From UHGV virus genome UHGV-0175639: a DNA stretch of 64,000 nucleotides; one strand, given 5' to 3'. The notes beneath the pieces are model-generated. The model had not been told where the DNA came from, ran no database searches, and saw only the letters and a program-made list of their open reading frames with translations. Of this stretch, positions 252 through 51,074 are shown piece by piece. A program made the position numbers and the translations under genes. The stretch comes from a virus. Position 1 is the stretch's first letter. Each line of letters begins with the position of its first letter.

Positions 252-1352
252 ATGAGCGAGTCCAAATCGCCGGATGCCCTGAGAGCAATGGTAGCCGGTA
301 CGCTGGCTAATTTTCAGCACCCAACCCTGAAACACAACCTGACTACGCTTAAAGCGTTACACCATGTTGCGTTGATGGATGACACACTGCATGTCGAACT
401 AATCATGCCTTTCGTGTGGAATAAGCCTTTTGAAGACCTGAAAGAGCAATGTAGTGGTGATCTGCTCCGTATCACTGGCGCAAAGGCTATTGACTGGAAG
501 CTGTCGTACAACATTGCCACGCTTAAGCGTGTCAAAAACCAACCAGGCATTAATGGCGTTAAGAACATTATCGCCGTCAGCTCAGGCAAGGGCGGCGTGG
601 GTAAATCCTCCACGGCGGTAAACCTGGCACTGGCGTTGGCTGCTGAAGGTGCGAAAGTTGGTATTTTGGATGCCGATATCTATGGTCCATCAATTCCAAC
701 CATGCTGGGCGCGGAAAACCAACGTCCAACCTCACCTGACGGTACTCACATGGCACCTATCATGTCTCATGGCCTGGCAACCAACTCTATTGGTTATCTG
801 GTCACCGACGACAATGCAATGGTGTGGCGTGGACCGATGGCCAGCAAGGCGCTGATGCAGATGTTGCAGGAAACTCTATGGCCTGATCTGGACTATCTTG
901 TTCTCGATATGCCGCCGGGCACTGGTGATATTCAGTTGACGCTGGCGCAGAACATTCCTGTAACTGGTGCTGTTGTGGTAACTACGCCGCAAGACATCGC
1001 GCTGATCGATGCGAAGAAAGGCATTGTGATGTTCGAAAAAGTCGAAGTGCCGGTACTGGGTATCGTCGAAAACATGAGTGTGCATATTTGCAGTAACTGC
1101 GGTCATCACGAGCCAATTTTCGGCACCGGTGGCGCAGAGAAACTGGCCGAGAAATACAACACGCAGTTGTTAGGCCAAATGCCACTTCATATCTCACTTC
1201 GTGAAGATCTGGATAACGGAACACCAACCGTTATTAGTCGTCCAGATAGCGAATTTACGGCTATTTATCGTGACCTCGCAGATCGCGTTGCTGCCCAAAT
1301 GTATTGGCAAGGTGAAGTAATACCTGGCGAAATCGCATTCCGCGCAGTGTGA
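252..1352 (+). CDS. apbC: Fe-S cluster carrier ATPase Mrp/ApbC
   Basis: 366 aa; Walker A GKGGVGKSS, ParA/MinD fold, CxxC near C-terminus; matches enterobacterial Mrp from memory. Confidence 0.95.
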   Translation: MSESKSPDALRAMVAGTLANFQHPTLKHNLTTLKALHHVALMDDTLHVELIMPFVWNKPFEDLKEQCSGDLLRITGAKAIDWKLSYNIATLKRVKNQPGINGVKNIIAVSSGKGGVGKSSTAVNLALALAAEGAKVGILDADIYGPSIPTMLGAENQRPTSPDGTHMAPIMSHGLATNSIGYLVTDDNAMVWRGPMASKALMQMLQETLWPDLDYLVLDMPPGTGDIQLTLAQNIPVTGAVVVTTPQDIALIDAKKGIVMFEKVEVPVLGIVENMSVHICSNCGHHEPIFGTGGAEKLAEKYNTQLLGQMPLHISLREDLDNGTPTVISRPDSEFTAIYRDLADRVAAQMYWQGEVIPGEIAFRAV

Positions 1353-1360
1353 TAAAAAGG

Positions 1361-1379
1361 CGGTGCATTGCACCGCCTA
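1361..1379. terminator. hairpin GGCGGTGCATTGCACCGCC between convergent mrp and the UmuD-like gene
   Basis: Perfect inverted repeat directly after the mrp stop codon; could terminate in both directions. Confidence 0.5.
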
Positions 1380-1389
1380 ATCAGTTCTC

Positions 1390-1779
1390 CTACATCACGG
1401 GACAATCATCAAACTCGCCACTTCTTGCGTCGTTGATAATGTGAGTGATCACACCAAACACGGCATTGCTGCCCGTGCATCCATCGTCATCCTTTGGCAA
1501 TGCTTCCTTCTTACCGGTTCTTAAATCCTCCAGATGCTGACGTGGATACTTCCGGTATCTTTTTACGCGATATTCCCCATCCAGAGCGCATACAAGCAGA
1601 GAACCATCAACCGGGGTAAGTGAGGAATCGACCACCAGCAATGCACCCTGTAATATTCCCTCACGATGATGACTATCAGCTGCCCTCATGAAGTAGGTCG
1701 CTGAAGGATGTCTAATTATCTGCTGATCAAGAGAAATACGGCTCTCAGCATAATCCGCCGCAGGAGAAGGGAAGCCCAT
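1390..1779 (-). CDS. UmuD-prime-like S24 peptidase-fold protein (HumD-like; lacks the UmuD N-terminal arm)
   Basis: Starts MGFPSPAADY, matching UmuD just after its self-cleavage site; Ser and Lys of the catalytic dyad context present. Confidence 0.75.
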   Translation of the reverse strand: MGFPSPAADYAESRISLDQQIIRHPSATYFMRAADSHHREGILQGALLVVDSSLTPVDGSLLVCALDGEYRVKRYRKYPRQHLEDLRTGKKEALPKDDDGCTGSNAVFGVITHIINDARSGEFDDCPVM

Positions 1780-1795
1780 AATACTCGCCTCTTAA

Positions 1796-1815
1796 TACTG
1801 TATACACATACAGTG
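1796..1815. promoter_or_regulatory. LexA (SOS) box TACTGTATACACATACAGTG
   Basis: CTG-N10-CAG with AT-rich core, 17 bp upstream of the UmuD-like start. Confidence 0.7.
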
Positions 1816-2441
1816 TATATTGAAGCTATATATTTTTGAACTCTATCTCTTAAAAAAGATGTTAATAAGATGCTAACTATTGAAAGGCATAAATATATAC
1901 AATTCAAACAAACGTTATTTTTAACAAATTTTTTCTTCCCATTGACTTTTTCGAACGCCTTGTCCGGTCTAAAGTGCGCAGAAGTCACTTTTTCCTTCCT
2001 GAGTTATCCACAGGCTTATGCACTTGCATGAAAAATCTATTCACACTATCTTAATTCGCAAGACACTGATGTTGCAGTATTGAGGGTATGTTGGGTTAAA
2101 AATAGACATTAAAAAGCCCAGTTGACTAGGCTGGGCTTTTTAAAAGGAAACAGAGTTTGCGGCTCTGTTCCTGAGCCATAAGTATCTGGCGACTGAATTA
2201 AGATTAACCGAATGTACTGGATTCATCAAGAAACGTTGAGTGGTCATACTAGGTAATAATGACCATTTACTAAACATCGTTGTTCTCAAAGAAGATTTAA
2301 GTCCAGGTTTTTGGTGACTCTAAAACCTTACCTTAACTCGAAATCGTGCCGTAAGTATCTGGCGACTACAGATATTGCAACTGCAAAGGCAAGCCCAAAG
2401 GTATTTGCAGCTAGGCGCGATAAAACTAAGTGAGGCCTGTT

Positions 2442-3587: not shown

Positions 3588-3997
3588 TCGTCATCCTCAT
3601 CCGAGTCATCCTCATCACAGGATGAGAGTAGTGGGTTAGTCATTCGCCCTACTTGAGTGGCGTAGCCACGCCGACAGAGATTGCGCAGCACACTGTATAT
3701 TTCGAACATCTCGGTTCGTTCATCGCCAACATCAAGCTCAGATGCTATAGCGTGGCATTCAGTCGCGAGAGCCGATATTTTCTGAAATAACTCTGCATTA
3801 TTCACTGTTCGACTCCTGCGGCGTTCTGGTAGTGGCATCCAGTGTGTGACATTGCTAATCAGACCATATTCATTAGTTTGAGGATGGTTGCCGTTATCGT
3901 CTCCGTATTTAAGACTCTCCATAAAGCCATAATGCCTATCACCATTAACGCTCACAAAGCCGTAATAAGCAGGTATAACTGAATCGCCACGGATAAT

Positions 3998-4810
3998 CTA
4001 GACACTTCCGAGCCGTTGATAATACTGGTTTTCATATTCTGTCGGTGACATCTGTTCGCTAGAACCATGCCGACGCTTACTGTTATAAAACATTTCGATG
4101 TAATCAAAAATATCACTGCGGGCTTCTTCCCGCGTTCCGTAGATCTTTTTCTTTATCCGTTCACGTTTCAACAACTGGAAAAAACTTTCTGCAACCGCAT
4201 TATCATGGCAGTTACCGCGACGGCTCATGCTACCCTCCAGGCCGTGTGATTTCAGGAACGACTGCCACTCATGGCTTGTGTACTGACTGCCCTGATCCGA
4301 ATGAACCAGCACCTGTTTTTCGGGATTACGCCGCCATACAGCCATCAGCAGTGCGTTCAGGACAATGTCCTTTGTCATCCGGGATTGCATGGACCAGCCG
4401 ATAATTTTGCGTGAGAACAGATCAACAACAACGGCAAGATACAGCCAGCCTTCGTGGGTCCTGATGTAGGTTATGTCCGTTACCCAACGCTCATCAGGAG
4501 CATCCGGATTGAACTGTCGCTGGAGCCTGTTGGGTGACACGATACTGGCCTCGCCTTTACGTGCCCGCGGGCTTCGGTATCCGACCTGAGCCTTTATTCC
4601 GACACGTTTCATCAGTCTCCAGACTCTGTTTACTCCGCACTGTTGCCCGCTGTCACGCAAATCCAGATGGATTTTGCGATAACCATAGACGCATCCCGAT
4701 TCCAGCCAGAACTGTTTAATCTGTCCTGTCAGTCTCAGGTCTGCCTGATGGCGTTGTGAATGCGGCTGCTGAAGCCAGGCGTAAAAACCACTGGGATGAA
4801 CATCCAGCAC
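3998..4810 (-). CDS. IS3-family transposase OrfB (DDE integrase core)
   Basis: 270 aa; WVTDITYIRT...VHSDQGSQYTS...CHDNAVAESFF signature of IS3 OrfB. Confidence 0.85.
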   Translation of the reverse strand: MLDVHPSGFYAWLQQPHSQRHQADLRLTGQIKQFWLESGCVYGYRKIHLDLRDSGQQCGVNRVWRLMKRVGIKAQVGYRSPRARKGEASIVSPNRLQRQFNPDAPDERWVTDITYIRTHEGWLYLAVVVDLFSRKIIGWSMQSRMTKDIVLNALLMAVWRRNPEKQVLVHSDQGSQYTSHEWQSFLKSHGLEGSMSRRGNCHDNAVAESFFQLLKRERIKKKIYGTREEARSDIFDYIEMFYNSKRRHGSSEQMSPTEYENQYYQRLGSV

Positions 4811-4866
4811 CCGACAGAGCAGGCGAACAGGCCAGCAACAGGAGTTGTCACGGATAAAGGCGTACC

Positions 4867-5151
4867 TCAGTCGGACAGCTTTGCGAAGTACGCCGCGGCT
4901 TTTTTTAATATGTCCCGTTCGTCGGTAACCCGTTTCAGCTCTTTCTGGAGACGGCGGATCTCGGCCTGAGCATCTGACTGTTCTTTATTAGTGGAAGAAT
5001 CCGGACCGTACTTCTTTATCCAGGCATAAAGGCTGTGGGTGGTGATATCGAGACGTGTTGCAACGCTGGCAACAGAATAACCGCGATCAACAACCTGTTT
5101 GACTGCTTCAGTTTTAAACTCTTCGGGATAACGCTTACCGCTCATGGGCAC
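4867..5151 (-). CDS. IS3-family transposase OrfA (HTH, leucine-zipper region)
   Basis: 94 aa; EEFKTEAVKQV...HSLYAWIKKY pattern typical of IS3 OrfA. Confidence 0.85.
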   Translation of the reverse strand: MPMSGKRYPEEFKTEAVKQVVDRGYSVASVATRLDITTHSLYAWIKKYGPDSSTNKEQSDAQAEIRRLQKELKRVTDERDILKKAAAYFAKLSD

Positions 5152-5468
5152 CTCTCTTTAAGCCATCTTAAATGACACTGAGGTGTCTGTTAAACCCGTG
5201 GCGATTCAAACGCCGATCTCACACATAACCAGTAAAGGAAAACTAGTTCTCCAATTTAGCTCGCCAATTACAGGCATTCGCTCACTACAGCTTATCCAAC
5301 CATCCTTAGATGCGGCTGTATTGGCATAGGCCTTACGGTGCTTCTGTAGCTCTGCTGCAATCGCTCTCACGACTTCAACTGGTGCCCTTGCAGCAAACTC
5401 AATGTTGGTGATCAGCTCATTAAGATATTTCTCGCTTGGGTAGCATTTCTTATTGTTAACGGTGGTCA

Positions 5469-35230: not shown

Positions 35231-36304
35231 TTACTCTTCTACTGACTCGGTGGGGTTGTCTTTTGCTCTTCGGTCGTCGATTGCCTGCAAAGCCGCAATG
35301 ATTTCAGCCAGTGGCTTCTCCCGATACATCTCGACGATCTGCGATTTGGTGTATTTCTTGTCACCAATTTCAACTCGCCCGCTGGCGTTCTTTGGCAGGT
35401 ATCCTTCTTCCAGCATGTACTCGACGAGCGATTCGATAACGTCGAGGCCACGAGTAGGATCGAAGTAGAATTTCCAGGTGCATTTGCCATACGGTGGTGC
35501 AACTTTGTTTTTGATGCATTCTGCGCCTACGTCCTGGCCGATCTTCTCTTTACCATCCTTCATCACCGATGCACCAAGACGGATACGTACAGAAGCGTAG
35601 AACTTCGGTGAATCTCCACCTGGCGACGTAGTAGGGTCGCCAAACATTACACCGATTTTTGTGCGAACCTGATTCAAGAAGATGATGCAGGCGTTGTATT
35701 TGCGTGCCCACAAAGCCAGAGTAGGGAAGTTCGCACTTGTCGCACGAGCCAGTGCCGTATTGTCGTTCATGTTTAGCTGATCTTTGTCTTTGGCAGTGCC
35801 TTCAGCCATCTTTTCGAACTTCTCGGCTTTGGAGTTCGGAACCATAGACGCAAGTGAGTCAGCCACGATACAGATAGGTGCTGATTCAGGGATAAGCTCT
35901 TCATCACGTACCAATTTAAGTATTGTGCCGATCAACTCTACAGAGTCTTCGAAGGTGTCAGGCTGCTTGTATACCCACTGACCGTCATCCTCATCTGCGT
36001 TCAGGCCATTGGCTACAGCCAGGCCAACGTCAAAACTGTTTTCATGATCGAGGAATACCGCCAGACCATCTTGTTTTTGAGCGGAGATCATCGCTGCTGT
36101 TGCAAGGAACGTTTTCCCTGCACTTGGAGGACCGAATACTTCGACGATACGACCACATGGGAAGCCGCCATCGTAACGACCAGAAATAGCTTTGTTTAAC
36201 GGTGGAAAGCCTGTATCAATCCAATGAGTTACTTTCTGAATTTCGTCGTTGCTACCGATTTTCTTTTTCAGAGCAAGTGCCAGTGCGGATTTTCCTTTTG
36301 CCAT
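35231..36304 (-). CDS. RecA/UvsX-family recombinase
   Basis: GRIVEVFGPPSAGKT Walker A in RecA-like context. Confidence 0.8.
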   Translation of the reverse strand: MAKGKSALALALKKKIGSNDEIQKVTHWIDTGFPPLNKAISGRYDGGFPCGRIVEVFGPPSAGKTFLATAAMISAQKQDGLAVFLDHENSFDVGLAVANGLNADEDDGQWVYKQPDTFEDSVELIGTILKLVRDEELIPESAPICIVADSLASMVPNSKAEKFEKMAEGTAKDKDQLNMNDNTALARATSANFPTLALWARKYNACIIFLNQVRTKIGVMFGDPTTSPGGDSPKFYASVRIRLGASVMKDGKEKIGQDVGAECIKNKVAPPYGKCTWKFYFDPTRGLDVIESLVEYMLEEGYLPKNASGRVEIGDKKYTKSQIVEMYREKPLAEIIAALQAIDDRRAKDNPTESVEE

Positions 36305-46980: not shown

Positions 46981-47367
46981 ATGTCTGACAACAAGATTGA
47001 ATTTATAGAAAGTCGCTATGCTGCTTTTATCGCAGGGCTGATTGAATCCTCACCTATGAGTCAGGCCCAAATAGCCAGACTTATTGGTTATAAAAATGCC
47101 AACAACCTTTCTTTAATTAAAAGTGGCAAAATTCCTTTGCCTATCGATAAGGTTCGTCCGTTGGCGCTGGCGCTGGGTATTGAGCCAAGTCGTCTTATGA
47201 TGATGGTGCTGGAAGAACGCCAACCTGAACTCGCAGCATTTTTATACAAAGAAGGCACCGCTCCTCTTAACGAGGACGAAAAACAGGTTCTTGCTGCATA
47301 TAACGAGCGATTCGGTAAAGAGAAAGGCGCATCACAAAAGGTTGTTGAGGCCATAAAGTCTCTATGA
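46981..47367 (+). CDS. HTH (Cro/C1-type) transcriptional regulator
   Basis: SQAQIARLIGYKNANNLSLIKSG helix-turn-helix; convergent with the recombinase. Confidence 0.6.
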   Translation: MSDNKIEFIESRYAAFIAGLIESSPMSQAQIARLIGYKNANNLSLIKSGKIPLPIDKVRPLALALGIEPSRLMMMVLEERQPELAAFLYKEGTAPLNEDEKQVLAAYNERFGKEKGASQKVVEAIKSL

Positions 47368-48465
47368 AAAATTTACACGAATAAGCTCTGTTGATAGACG
47401 ATCTCCCTTGAATTTGTGGTCAATTTCGTCTAAATCCGGTTGCTCTACGATTGATGCGATGTACGTCGAGAAACTTTCTAAGGCGTCTCGCATCTCGTCC
47501 ATATAATCGTGCCGGTCGTAGACTCGATCTATCCCCTCAAGACTGTGGTTCATGATTTTGCGTGATACCTCCTGGCTTATGCCTAATGCTGGGAAGTAAC
47601 TACGCGCAGTACGGCGCAAGTCTCGGGGTGTAAATGGCTCAAGCTCCATCAGTTCTGGTCGTTCCAGGATACGACGTAATGCCTGGGCTATTGCCACTTT
47701 AGACATAGGAAGGTCTTTCCCGATTTTTTTATTCGAAGGCACGAGCCACTGGCTGCCTTTACCGTATTCGAACAACTCTTCAATACATGTGCGCATTAAT
47801 GTGCTTAAAGGCAGCGAATGCTCACGGGCAGATTTGTTCCTCTTGCCTTGATTCCAAACCCCACGCTTAAGATTGAACTCACTTTTTTTAGCCCGCAGTA
47901 CTTCGTCAGGTCGTCTTGCGGATACAAGACACAGCCTGGCCGCCCATTTTGTACCAGCGCACACATTGAAGTAGTCCCATATATTCCAGAACACCCATAC
48001 CTCTGCGTCGGTCAGCTTCCGCTCGCGAGGTGTGGGCTTTGCGCCACCGGCAACTTTGTTTAGTGACATATCGTTTAACGGTGACACGTCTATCATCCCC
48101 TGGAAGGCGCACCAGCTAAGGAACTGCTTCATCAGAGAGAAAACGCGGCGGCCCATAACAATTTTGCCATCCAGTATTAGTGGGTTGACCAGTTGGTTCA
48201 CCATGAACCTATTAATGTCACTTACTTTTACATCGGCAATGTGCGGCAAAACATGTATCAAAATACAATGAACAGCGATCTCTGGCCGACGTCTTGTTAT
48301 CAGCAGAGATAAGCGAGTGAATAACATGAATGCGTCCGAGAATCTCATGTCATTGCTGACCTGCGAGATCATAACGGCCTGCATTTGAGATGCTCTTTCG
48401 AGATACTCAATCGCCTCTTTTGAGGTGTTCTCCGCAGCGCGTGCTCTGTCAAAGCTATTTTTCAT
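47362..48465 (-). CDS. tyrosine site-specific recombinase
   Basis: Conserved Arg and LRRT box and C-terminal VYDRHDY tyrosine region. Confidence 0.8.
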   Translation of the reverse strand: MKNSFDRARAAENTSKEAIEYLERASQMQAVMISQVSNDMRFSDAFMLFTRLSLLITRRRPEIAVHCILIHVLPHIADVKVSDINRFMVNQLVNPLILDGKIVMGRRVFSLMKQFLSWCAFQGMIDVSPLNDMSLNKVAGGAKPTPRERKLTDAEVWVFWNIWDYFNVCAGTKWAARLCLVSARRPDEVLRAKKSEFNLKRGVWNQGKRNKSAREHSLPLSTLMRTCIEELFEYGKGSQWLVPSNKKIGKDLPMSKVAIAQALRRILERPELMELEPFTPRDLRRTARSYFPALGISQEVSRKIMNHSLEGIDRVYDRHDYMDEMRDALESFSTYIASIVEQPDLDEIDHKFKGDRLSTELIRVNFS

Positions 48466-48563
48466 ATGACAATCACCGAGTTACGCCGATTCACTGTATA
48501 AGTAAACAGTATATTAGGCATAGATTCTTATAGGATCAAGAGTAAAAGTAACTCATTTTCAGT

Positions 48564-50549: not shown

Positions 50550-50636
50550 CTGGCGGAGAGTAATGGAATCGAACCATCATCGTTTGCACAATGGAACGGT
50601 TTTCAAGACCGCTTGAGCACCATGCTCCCTACTCTC
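50550..50636 (-). tRNA. tRNA-Ser (anticodon UGA), long variable arm, CCA encoded
   Basis: Manual fold: acceptor GGAGAGU/ACUCUCC, anticodon loop CUUGAAA, T-loop GGTTCGATTCC. Confidence 0.65.
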
Positions 50637-50827
50637 CAGCTATTGTGATGGTCGGTACTGAACTCCGACACAGGGTTGTAGCAAGCCCCGCAAAGCGCGC
50701 ACTACTGTAGTTGCGGCACATCAGCCTGTGCATTCATCACAACGGTAAGAGCACTGGTCTGACTCTATCGATTTACGGCCTTGTGGGTCAGTATCGCCGA
50801 TTCGCCCAATGCTCTTACCTGTTGTGT

Positions 50828-50903
50828 TGGTGCCGGTTAACGGACTTGAACCGCTGGCCATTCGCTTACAAAGCGACTGCTCTACCAACTGAGCTAAACC
50901 GGC
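50828..50903 (-). tRNA. tRNA-Thr (anticodon UGU), CCA encoded
   Basis: Manual fold: acceptor GCCGGUU/AACCGGC, D-arm AGCTCAGTTGGTAGAGC, anticodon loop UUUGUAA. Confidence 0.6.
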
Positions 50904-50907
50904 AATT

Positions 50908-50994
50908 TGGTGGGGAGTGATGGAGTCGAACCACCCGAGTCGCCATGACAGTAGATTTACAGTCTACACCGCTACCTCTACGGACTAACTCCCC
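50908..50994 (-). tRNA. tRNA-Tyr (anticodon GUA), long variable arm, CCA encoded
   Basis: Manual fold: acceptor GGGGAGU/ACUCCCC, anticodon stem-loop GUAGA-CUGUAAA-UCUAC. Confidence 0.6.
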
Positions 50995-50999
50995 TAAAT

Positions 51000-51074
51000 T
51001 GGCGATGGTGGGTGGATTCGAACCACCGACCAGTTGGTTAACAGCCAACTGCTCTACCGCTGAGCTACACCATC
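51000..51074 (-). tRNA. tRNA-Asn (anticodon GUU), CCA encoded
   Basis: Manual fold: acceptor GAUGGUG/CACCAUC, anticodon stem-loop GUUGG-CUGUUAA-CCAAC, T-loop GGTTCGAATCC. Confidence 0.65.

Follow-up and report, generated by a model that had tools for sequence, protein, structure and literature searches.

The open reading frame at 1390-1779 on the minus strand of the window, by which we mean the whole 64,000-nucleotide stretch of virus genome UHGV-0175639 analysed here, is by sequence comparison an orthologue of humD of bacteriophage P1, a named and annotated family that is already known from this type of element. We consider it likely that the gene forms a LexA-controlled cassette of the P1 humD type, whose product would be made directly in the form that UmuD reaches by self-cleavage and would activate host UmuC. 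The carrier is, on the strength of its sequence relationships, an SSU5-like E. coli phage-plasmid.

Family membership and the start of the protein

The product matches the HumD equivalog of NCBIfam (NF051876, 'HumD family translesion DNA polymerase') with 219.8 bits against a cutoff of 120, with residues 1-129 covering positions 1-129 of the 129-position profile. Pfam assigns Peptidase_S24 to it, the UmuD subfamily model (NF007621 / PRK10276) gives 87 bits, under its cutoff of 110, and the LexA model TIGR00498 gives 27.2 bits against a cutoff of 110.95, with the S24 part alone matching. With tblastn, identity to the protein is 100% for CYRAN_98 of Escherichia phage Cyrano, 91.5-93% for HumD of P1 (AAQ14181.1) and of P1-like phages, and 64-71% for N15 gp26, phiKO2 gp23 and the 'UmuD-like' proteins of HK140 and HK639. 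On the near-identical plasmid pR9-658-1, RefSeq calls the protein at the humD position (WP_000506720.1) a 'HumD family translesion DNA polymerase'. A UmuD'-like domain and a C-terminal tail account for all 129 residues, and there is no DNA-binding domain.

A first-pass annotation, made from the DNA letters alone, had proposed that the protein begins at the point where UmuD is self-cleaved, and that it is a born-activated UmuD' analogue like P1 HumD. Both proposals are borne out. The product begins MGFPSPAADY and its best match among solved structures is UmuD' (1UMU; E = 6.7e-23, 42% identity). G2 aligns with residue 1 of 1UMU_A (GFPSPAADY...), which is G25 of full-length K-12 UmuD, and M1-G2 aligns with C24-G25, that is with the Cys24/Gly25 cleavage site. 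Since G2 thus coincides with the first residue of UmuD', the alignment places the start of HumD exactly at the self-cleavage point. A longer N-terminus is impossible, because an in-frame TAA is present at 1792-1794, 15 nt upstream of the humD ATG. The kinship with P1 HumD follows from the NF051876 match and from the alignment that had been suggested as a check, which gives 42% identity to UmuD' and 91.5-93% to P1 HumD.

The same start is a family trait. Across 120 clusters of the family the length is nearly always 127-130 residues and MGFPSP begins the protein in 108. Some members are called at 148-223 residues, and a true N-terminal arm on these was considered and rejected: the over-extended calls (e.g. 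MYIQYLYC...) run into an internal M-GFPSP, and their extensions are translated promoter or LexA-box DNA or an upstream open reading frame. An AlphaFold2 model was discarded. It was built from a 93-sequence family alignment in which every row was at least 67% identical to the query, and its mean pLDDT was 44; with an alignment this shallow and a pLDDT this low, the fold assigned to HumD rests on the sequence match to UmuD'.

Selection and active-site residues

Comparison of the window humD with P1 humD by the Nei-Gojobori method yields a dN of 0.042, a dS of 0.77 and a dN/dS of 0.055, and the dN/dS against humD of D6 is 0.076. These ratios show strong purifying selection on the gene; a dS of 0.77 indicates that it is no recent transfer from P1. 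S36 takes the place of the UmuD nucleophile Ser60, and 75 of the 120 clusters have Ser at this position, 43 have Thr and 2 have Ala. The motif around S36 reads ADSH as opposed to the classical GDSM, the family context being x-x-S/T-H. The equivalent of UmuD Lys97, K73, is kept in 117 of the 120 clusters. The protease activity of UmuD' is not needed once the protein is in its cleaved form. We read the pattern in the HumD family as an apparently relaxed constraint on catalysis, as would be expected of a protein that never needs to cleave itself.

Anatomy of the humD locus

With a predicted LexA box and a ribosome site in front of the gene and terminator-like hairpins on either side of it, humD looks like a small self-contained cassette (Table 1). 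The hairpin at the end of the transcript has a 9-bp stem with 7 GC pairs followed by TTTTTATC, lies 11 nt past the humD stop codon; homology to chromosomal apbC stops at about 1348, short of this hairpin. The hairpin on the upstream side is probably a boundary that insulates humD from the upstream operon.

Table 1. Features of the humD locus, in window coordinates.
Feature	Position	Strand	Basis and remarks
humD coding sequence	1390..1779	(-)	ORF listing; 129 aa; UmuD'-like S24 domain, no N-terminal arm
Codons for the family-specific tail E122-FDDCPVM-129 and stop codon	1390..1416	(-)	Near-invariant across 120 family clusters; nothing equivalent in UmuD
Shine-Dalgarno AAGAGG	1788..1793	(-)	Direct sequence reading; 8 nt before the humD ATG
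LexA (SOS) box CACTGTATGTGTATACAGTA	1796..1815	(-)	Predicted; 17/20 to consensus
Intrinsic-terminator-like hairpin and T-run, end of humD transcript	1358..1378	(-)	Terminator scan
Terminator-like hairpin upstream of humD	2115..2132	(-)	Terminator scan

The DNA upstream of the cassette is poor in open reading frames: the ORF listing has none of at least 60 codons wholly inside 1816-2580, and Rfam finds nothing in this stretch of about 800 bp, tRNAs being its only matches in the window. Within it, the 190 bp at 1842-2031 share 84.7% identity with P7/P1-like DNA; the match to P1 covers a shorter part of this segment, at 76% identity, and falls in the upfN/upfO region upstream of hot. The segment contains a perfect DnaA box, TTATCCACA, at 2004-2012 on the plus strand. 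The genes hot and lxr, which in P1 are sited between the upfN/upfO region and humD, are absent from the window.

To the other side, positions 1-1352 hold apbC (252-1352, plus strand) and metG, the methionyl-tRNA synthetase gene, which runs off the left end. At the DNA level this pair shares only about 84% identity with its E. coli chromosomal counterparts, with homology to the chromosome stopping at the end of apbC, and plasmids of the E. coli collection match the region at 223 places.

The LexA box

The predicted LexA box agrees with the consensus TACTGTATATATATACAGTA in 17 of its 20 positions, the CTGT-N8-ACAG core being perfect, and no match of 17/20 arose in 100 dinucleotide-preserving shuffles of the window. 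A near-consensus box had been claimed 17 bp upstream of the gene; the box stands, whereas the distance from the 20-mer to the humD ATG is 16 nt. At the first position of the box the window has C instead of T, and Cyrano has T.

In a DNA alignment, this box coincides with the LexA binding site that the P1 GenBank record marks 19 nt before humD. Homology between the window and P1 extends from about the LexA box to the humD stop codon, and the flanks outside are unrelated. As the homology is confined to this interval, box and gene appear to travel together in the manner of a cassette. The same is seen more widely: each of the ten phage homologues examined (P1, Cyrano, D6, N15, phiKO2, HK639, HK140 and one phage each of Enterobacter, Aeromonas and Hafnia) has a LexA box with 16-18 matches out of 20 ahead of its humD unit, despite unrelated flanks in which tail-fibre, partition, integrase or addiction genes form the context. 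In nine of these loci the box has the form CTG-N10-CAG and is 14-44 nt upstream of humD; in the tenth, HK140, a 17/20 box precedes a two-gene unit of gp27 and humD.

A consensus scan near the box returned no sigma-70 promoter of at least 9/12 on the humD strand. A promoter-like site is present on the opposite strand (1792-1821, plus), where it overlaps the LexA box and points to a putative 53-codon open reading frame with a hydrophobic stretch (1870-2031, plus). In P1 and phiKO2 the same LexA box also controls a divergent gene, lxr and dinI, respectively. None of the partners known from other loci (Lxr of P1, DinI of phiKO2 and HK140, gp27 of HK140) was found in the window.

For Cyrano, whose HumD has the identical protein sequence, the rows shown of the table of genes expressed in unstressed lysogens include the neighbour CYRAN_99 and not CYRAN_98 (PMC9928086), which is weakly suggestive of repression in cells without stress.

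The carrying phage-plasmid and the missing umuC

Escherichia phage CMS-2020a shares 97-99% identity with the window, Cyrano and PhiR41_1 share 96-98% and Salmonella phage SSU5 shares 78-81%; the window is also collinear with 63 kb of plasmid pR9-658-1 (110,949 bp). Besides RepB, ParB and the terminase, portal, capsid and tail proteins, this sibling plasmid encodes a DnaE of its own, a DnaB-like helicase, a ligase, NrdAB, thymidylate synthase, RNase HI and a RecA-like protein. Cyrano is described as a live phage-plasmid; it is present at about 5.5 copies per cell, and ciprofloxacin induces it 39-fold (PMC9928086). Of 5,426 complete E. coli genomes, 771 contain DNA at least 80% identical to the humD stretch, for the most part on plasmids.

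The absence of a umuC partner, which the first-pass annotation had noted, holds for the window and for the complete sibling plasmid. A tblastn search with E. coli K-12 UmuC gave nothing in the window (best E = 6.5) or in the 110,949 bp of pR9-658-1 (best E = 1.6), no Y-family polymerase is annotated on that plasmid, and an adjacent umuC occurs in 0 of the 10 phage homologues examined.

The window has its own 357-aa RecA-like recombinase gene at 35231-36304 (minus strand), alongside genes for DnaE, a DnaB-like helicase, ligase and NrdAB. Active Pol V contains RecA, and the RecA-like protein of the element is a conceivable alternative to host RecA for HumD.

Two further stretches of the element were noted. 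About 2 kb upstream of humD an IS3-family element occupies 3998-5151, with orfA at 4867-5151 and orfB at 3998-4810, both on the minus strand. The interval that contains it, 3704-5208, has no match in pR9-658-1, where ISEcp1-blaCTX-M-15 takes its place; this neighbour of the humD cassette looks like an insertion hot spot. Four tRNA genes are clustered at 50554-51074 (minus strand), of which Rfam calls the one at 50554-50638 tRNA-Sec with 47.3 bits against a threshold of 47. The similar four-tRNA cluster of the sibling plasmid comprises Ser, Thr, Tyr and Asn but lacks tRNA-Sec, which makes the call a probable artefact of a tRNA with a long variable arm.

The C-terminal tail

HumD proteins carry a C-terminal extension, ...NDAR-x-x-EFDDCPVM, that is present in the window protein and is near-invariant across the 120 clusters (E in 117, F in 116, D in 117, D in 112, C in 108, P in 116, V in 109 and M in 94). 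UmuD stops ten residues earlier and has nothing that corresponds to it. A survey of 1.84 billion representatives, clustered at 50% identity, found this tail or its variants EFDDTPF, EFHDNLPF, EWDDLPVI, EFDERPCI and EFDEIPCI only on proteins of the born-cleaved type or their fragments; none of the 64 UmuD-like representatives that keep the N-terminal arm has it. Some born-cleaved proteins are without a tail.

The C-peptide of E. coli SSB, DFDDDIPF, mediates protein contacts of SSB (PMC3936761), and EFDDCPVM resembles it, as do the distant variants EFDDTPF and EFHDNLPF. It is possible that the HumD tail mimics the SSB C-terminal peptide, a conjecture drawn from this resemblance to which we give a rather small chance. 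If it did, HumD would dock a translesion complex onto SSB-binding sites on replication and repair proteins, or compete for these sites, and orphan phage UmuD' proteins would gain a mechanism that the host protein does not have.

A second LexA-like box near a recombinase gene

The window and the whole sibling plasmid each contain two LexA boxes only, that of humD and one near a recombinase gene. The latter, at 48492-48511 on the minus strand (TACTGTTTACTTATACAGTG), matches the consensus at 16 of 20 positions, for which about 0.005 occurrences per window are expected by chance. A tyrosine recombinase/integrase gene (47362-48465, minus strand) follows 26 nt downstream of it, and the 3' end of this gene overlaps by 6 nt the convergent gene of a 128-aa HTH regulator (46981-47367, plus strand). 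When this box was sought in SSU5, the whole recombinase/HTH module proved to be absent there, and hence there is no phylogenetic footprint. The second box could be the route by which SOS reaches the lytic switch in ciprofloxacin-inducible phage-plasmids.

Proposed mechanism and alternatives

In an undamaged cell, host LexA would occupy the box and keep humD off. Upon DNA damage, activated RecA would promote self-cleavage of LexA and HumD would be made. As HumD would be synthesised in the UmuD' form, the slow RecA-dependent cleavage step that delays activation of Pol V would be bypassed, and a HumD dimer would join host UmuC, itself induced by SOS, in a Pol V-like translesion polymerase. Damaged DNA, that of the multicopy phage-plasmid included, would then be copied at the price of more mutations. 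Binding of LexA, pairing of HumD with UmuC and the benefit to the element are all modelled here on the precedent of P1. P1 HumD reportedly 'facilitates SOS mutagenesis', to go by the title of McLenigan et al. 1999, and the P1 GenBank note states that it 'functionally complements E. coli UmuD''. Substitution for UmuD' in UmuC-dependent SOS mutagenesis is known for P1 HumD only, and the window protein may be expected to share it on account of their 91.5-93% identity. The same precedent lends support to the role through host UmuC that the first-pass annotation had suggested.

Perhaps HumD mainly modulates the host damage response or the replisome instead of activating UmuC. It might form a heterodimer with uncleaved UmuD and so cancel the UmuD2C replication checkpoint, bind the RecA filament, or dock on replication proteins by its acidic tail. 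The near-invariant EFDDCPVM, which UmuD does not have and which resembles the SSB C-peptide, points to an additional interaction; in P1 and D6 humD is found near hot, which encodes a homologue of the polymerase III theta subunit, and in phiKO2 and HK140 it adjoins dinI, which encodes a RecA-filament binder; and the element has RecA-like and DnaE genes of its own. However, P1 HumD is recorded as complementing UmuD', which requires a productive complex with UmuC, and the interaction proposed for the tail is read from its sequence. We therefore regard a mainly modulatory role as unlikely, if worth keeping in mind, and it is compatible with the activation of UmuC in any case. Since the strongly conserved tail is absent from UmuD', the function of HumD may not be identical to that of UmuD', and, with a RecA-like protein and a DnaE encoded by the element itself, HumD could conceivably work with partners other than host UmuC.

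It appears very improbable that HumD is a damage sensor or anti-repressor of the element that triggers prophage induction, and the earlier suggestion that it senses damage for induction found no support. While predicted control by LexA is a property shared with known anti-repressors, such as that of N15, and the sibling Cyrano is induced by ciprofloxacin (PMC9928086), HumD has no DNA-binding domain (27 bits on the LexA family model, against a cutoff of 111), and the same cassette is found in P1, in N15 and in lambdoids, whose immunity systems are quite different. An induction circuit would more plausibly work through the second LexA box, which immediately precedes the recombinase gene next to the HTH regulator. 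Nor is it at all credible that humD is a decaying, non-functional S24 remnant, the degenerate fold that the first-pass annotation had named as a finding that would refute it. The degradation of GDSM to ADSH and the mixture of Ser, Thr and Ala at the nucleophile position might be taken for decay, but such loss of the motif is the relaxation expected in a born-cleaved form. A dN/dS of 0.055 contradicts decay, as do an intact reading frame with ribosome site and terminator, a family length of 127-130 residues and the conservation of the K97 equivalent in 117 of 120 clusters. Activation of host UmuC by a HumD made in the cleaved form is the reading that we favour.

Significance and comparison with known systems

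The finding confirms an existing annotation, and HumD-type cassettes are common. They tie phage-plasmids, which often carry resistance genes (e.g. the sibling with CTX-M-15), to SOS-induced mutagenesis, a link that is relevant to evolution driven by fluoroquinolones, though it is already known. The conserved SSB-like tail is the only part able to open a question, and the hypothesis built on it is the sole part that may be new.

The closest known counterpart is HumD of P1, which shares with the window protein the length of 129 residues, the MGFPSPAADY start, the LexA box, the lack of a umuC partner, carriage by a phage-plasmid and the same kind of C-terminal tail (GEFDDCPVI in P1). The two differ in their surroundings: the window belongs to an SSU5-like siphovirus phage-plasmid, its flanks are unrelated to those of P1, there is no divergent lxr and neither hot nor phd-doc is a neighbour, and humD abuts a captured apbC-metG pair, unlike in P1. 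N15 gp26, phiKO2 gp23 and the HK140 and HK639 proteins have the same start, the same tail, a LexA box upstream and an orphan, moron-like position near tail-fibre, partition or integrase genes. They belong to phages of types that differ from the window element, and phiKO2 and HK140 pair humD with a divergent dinI that the window does not have.

E. coli UmuD' (PDB 1UMU / 1I4V) has in common with HumD the S24 domain, the Ser and Lys equivalents (S36 and K73 here) and a LexA-controlled gene. In contrast to UmuD', HumD would be made directly, without RecA-stimulated self-cleavage, and it has neither residues 1-24 nor a cleavage site; its gene forms no operon with umuC, and 10 extra residues, the tail included, follow the position aligned with the last residue of UmuD. 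The mucAB, rumAB, impAB and samAB operons of plasmids and ICEs are SOS-linked systems on mobile elements that encode a full-length, cleavable UmuD-like protein together with a UmuC-like polymerase of their own. The window element resembles them in bearing an SOS-linked gene for a UmuD-like protein, and departs from them in that this protein is without the N-terminal arm and is accompanied by no polymerase gene.
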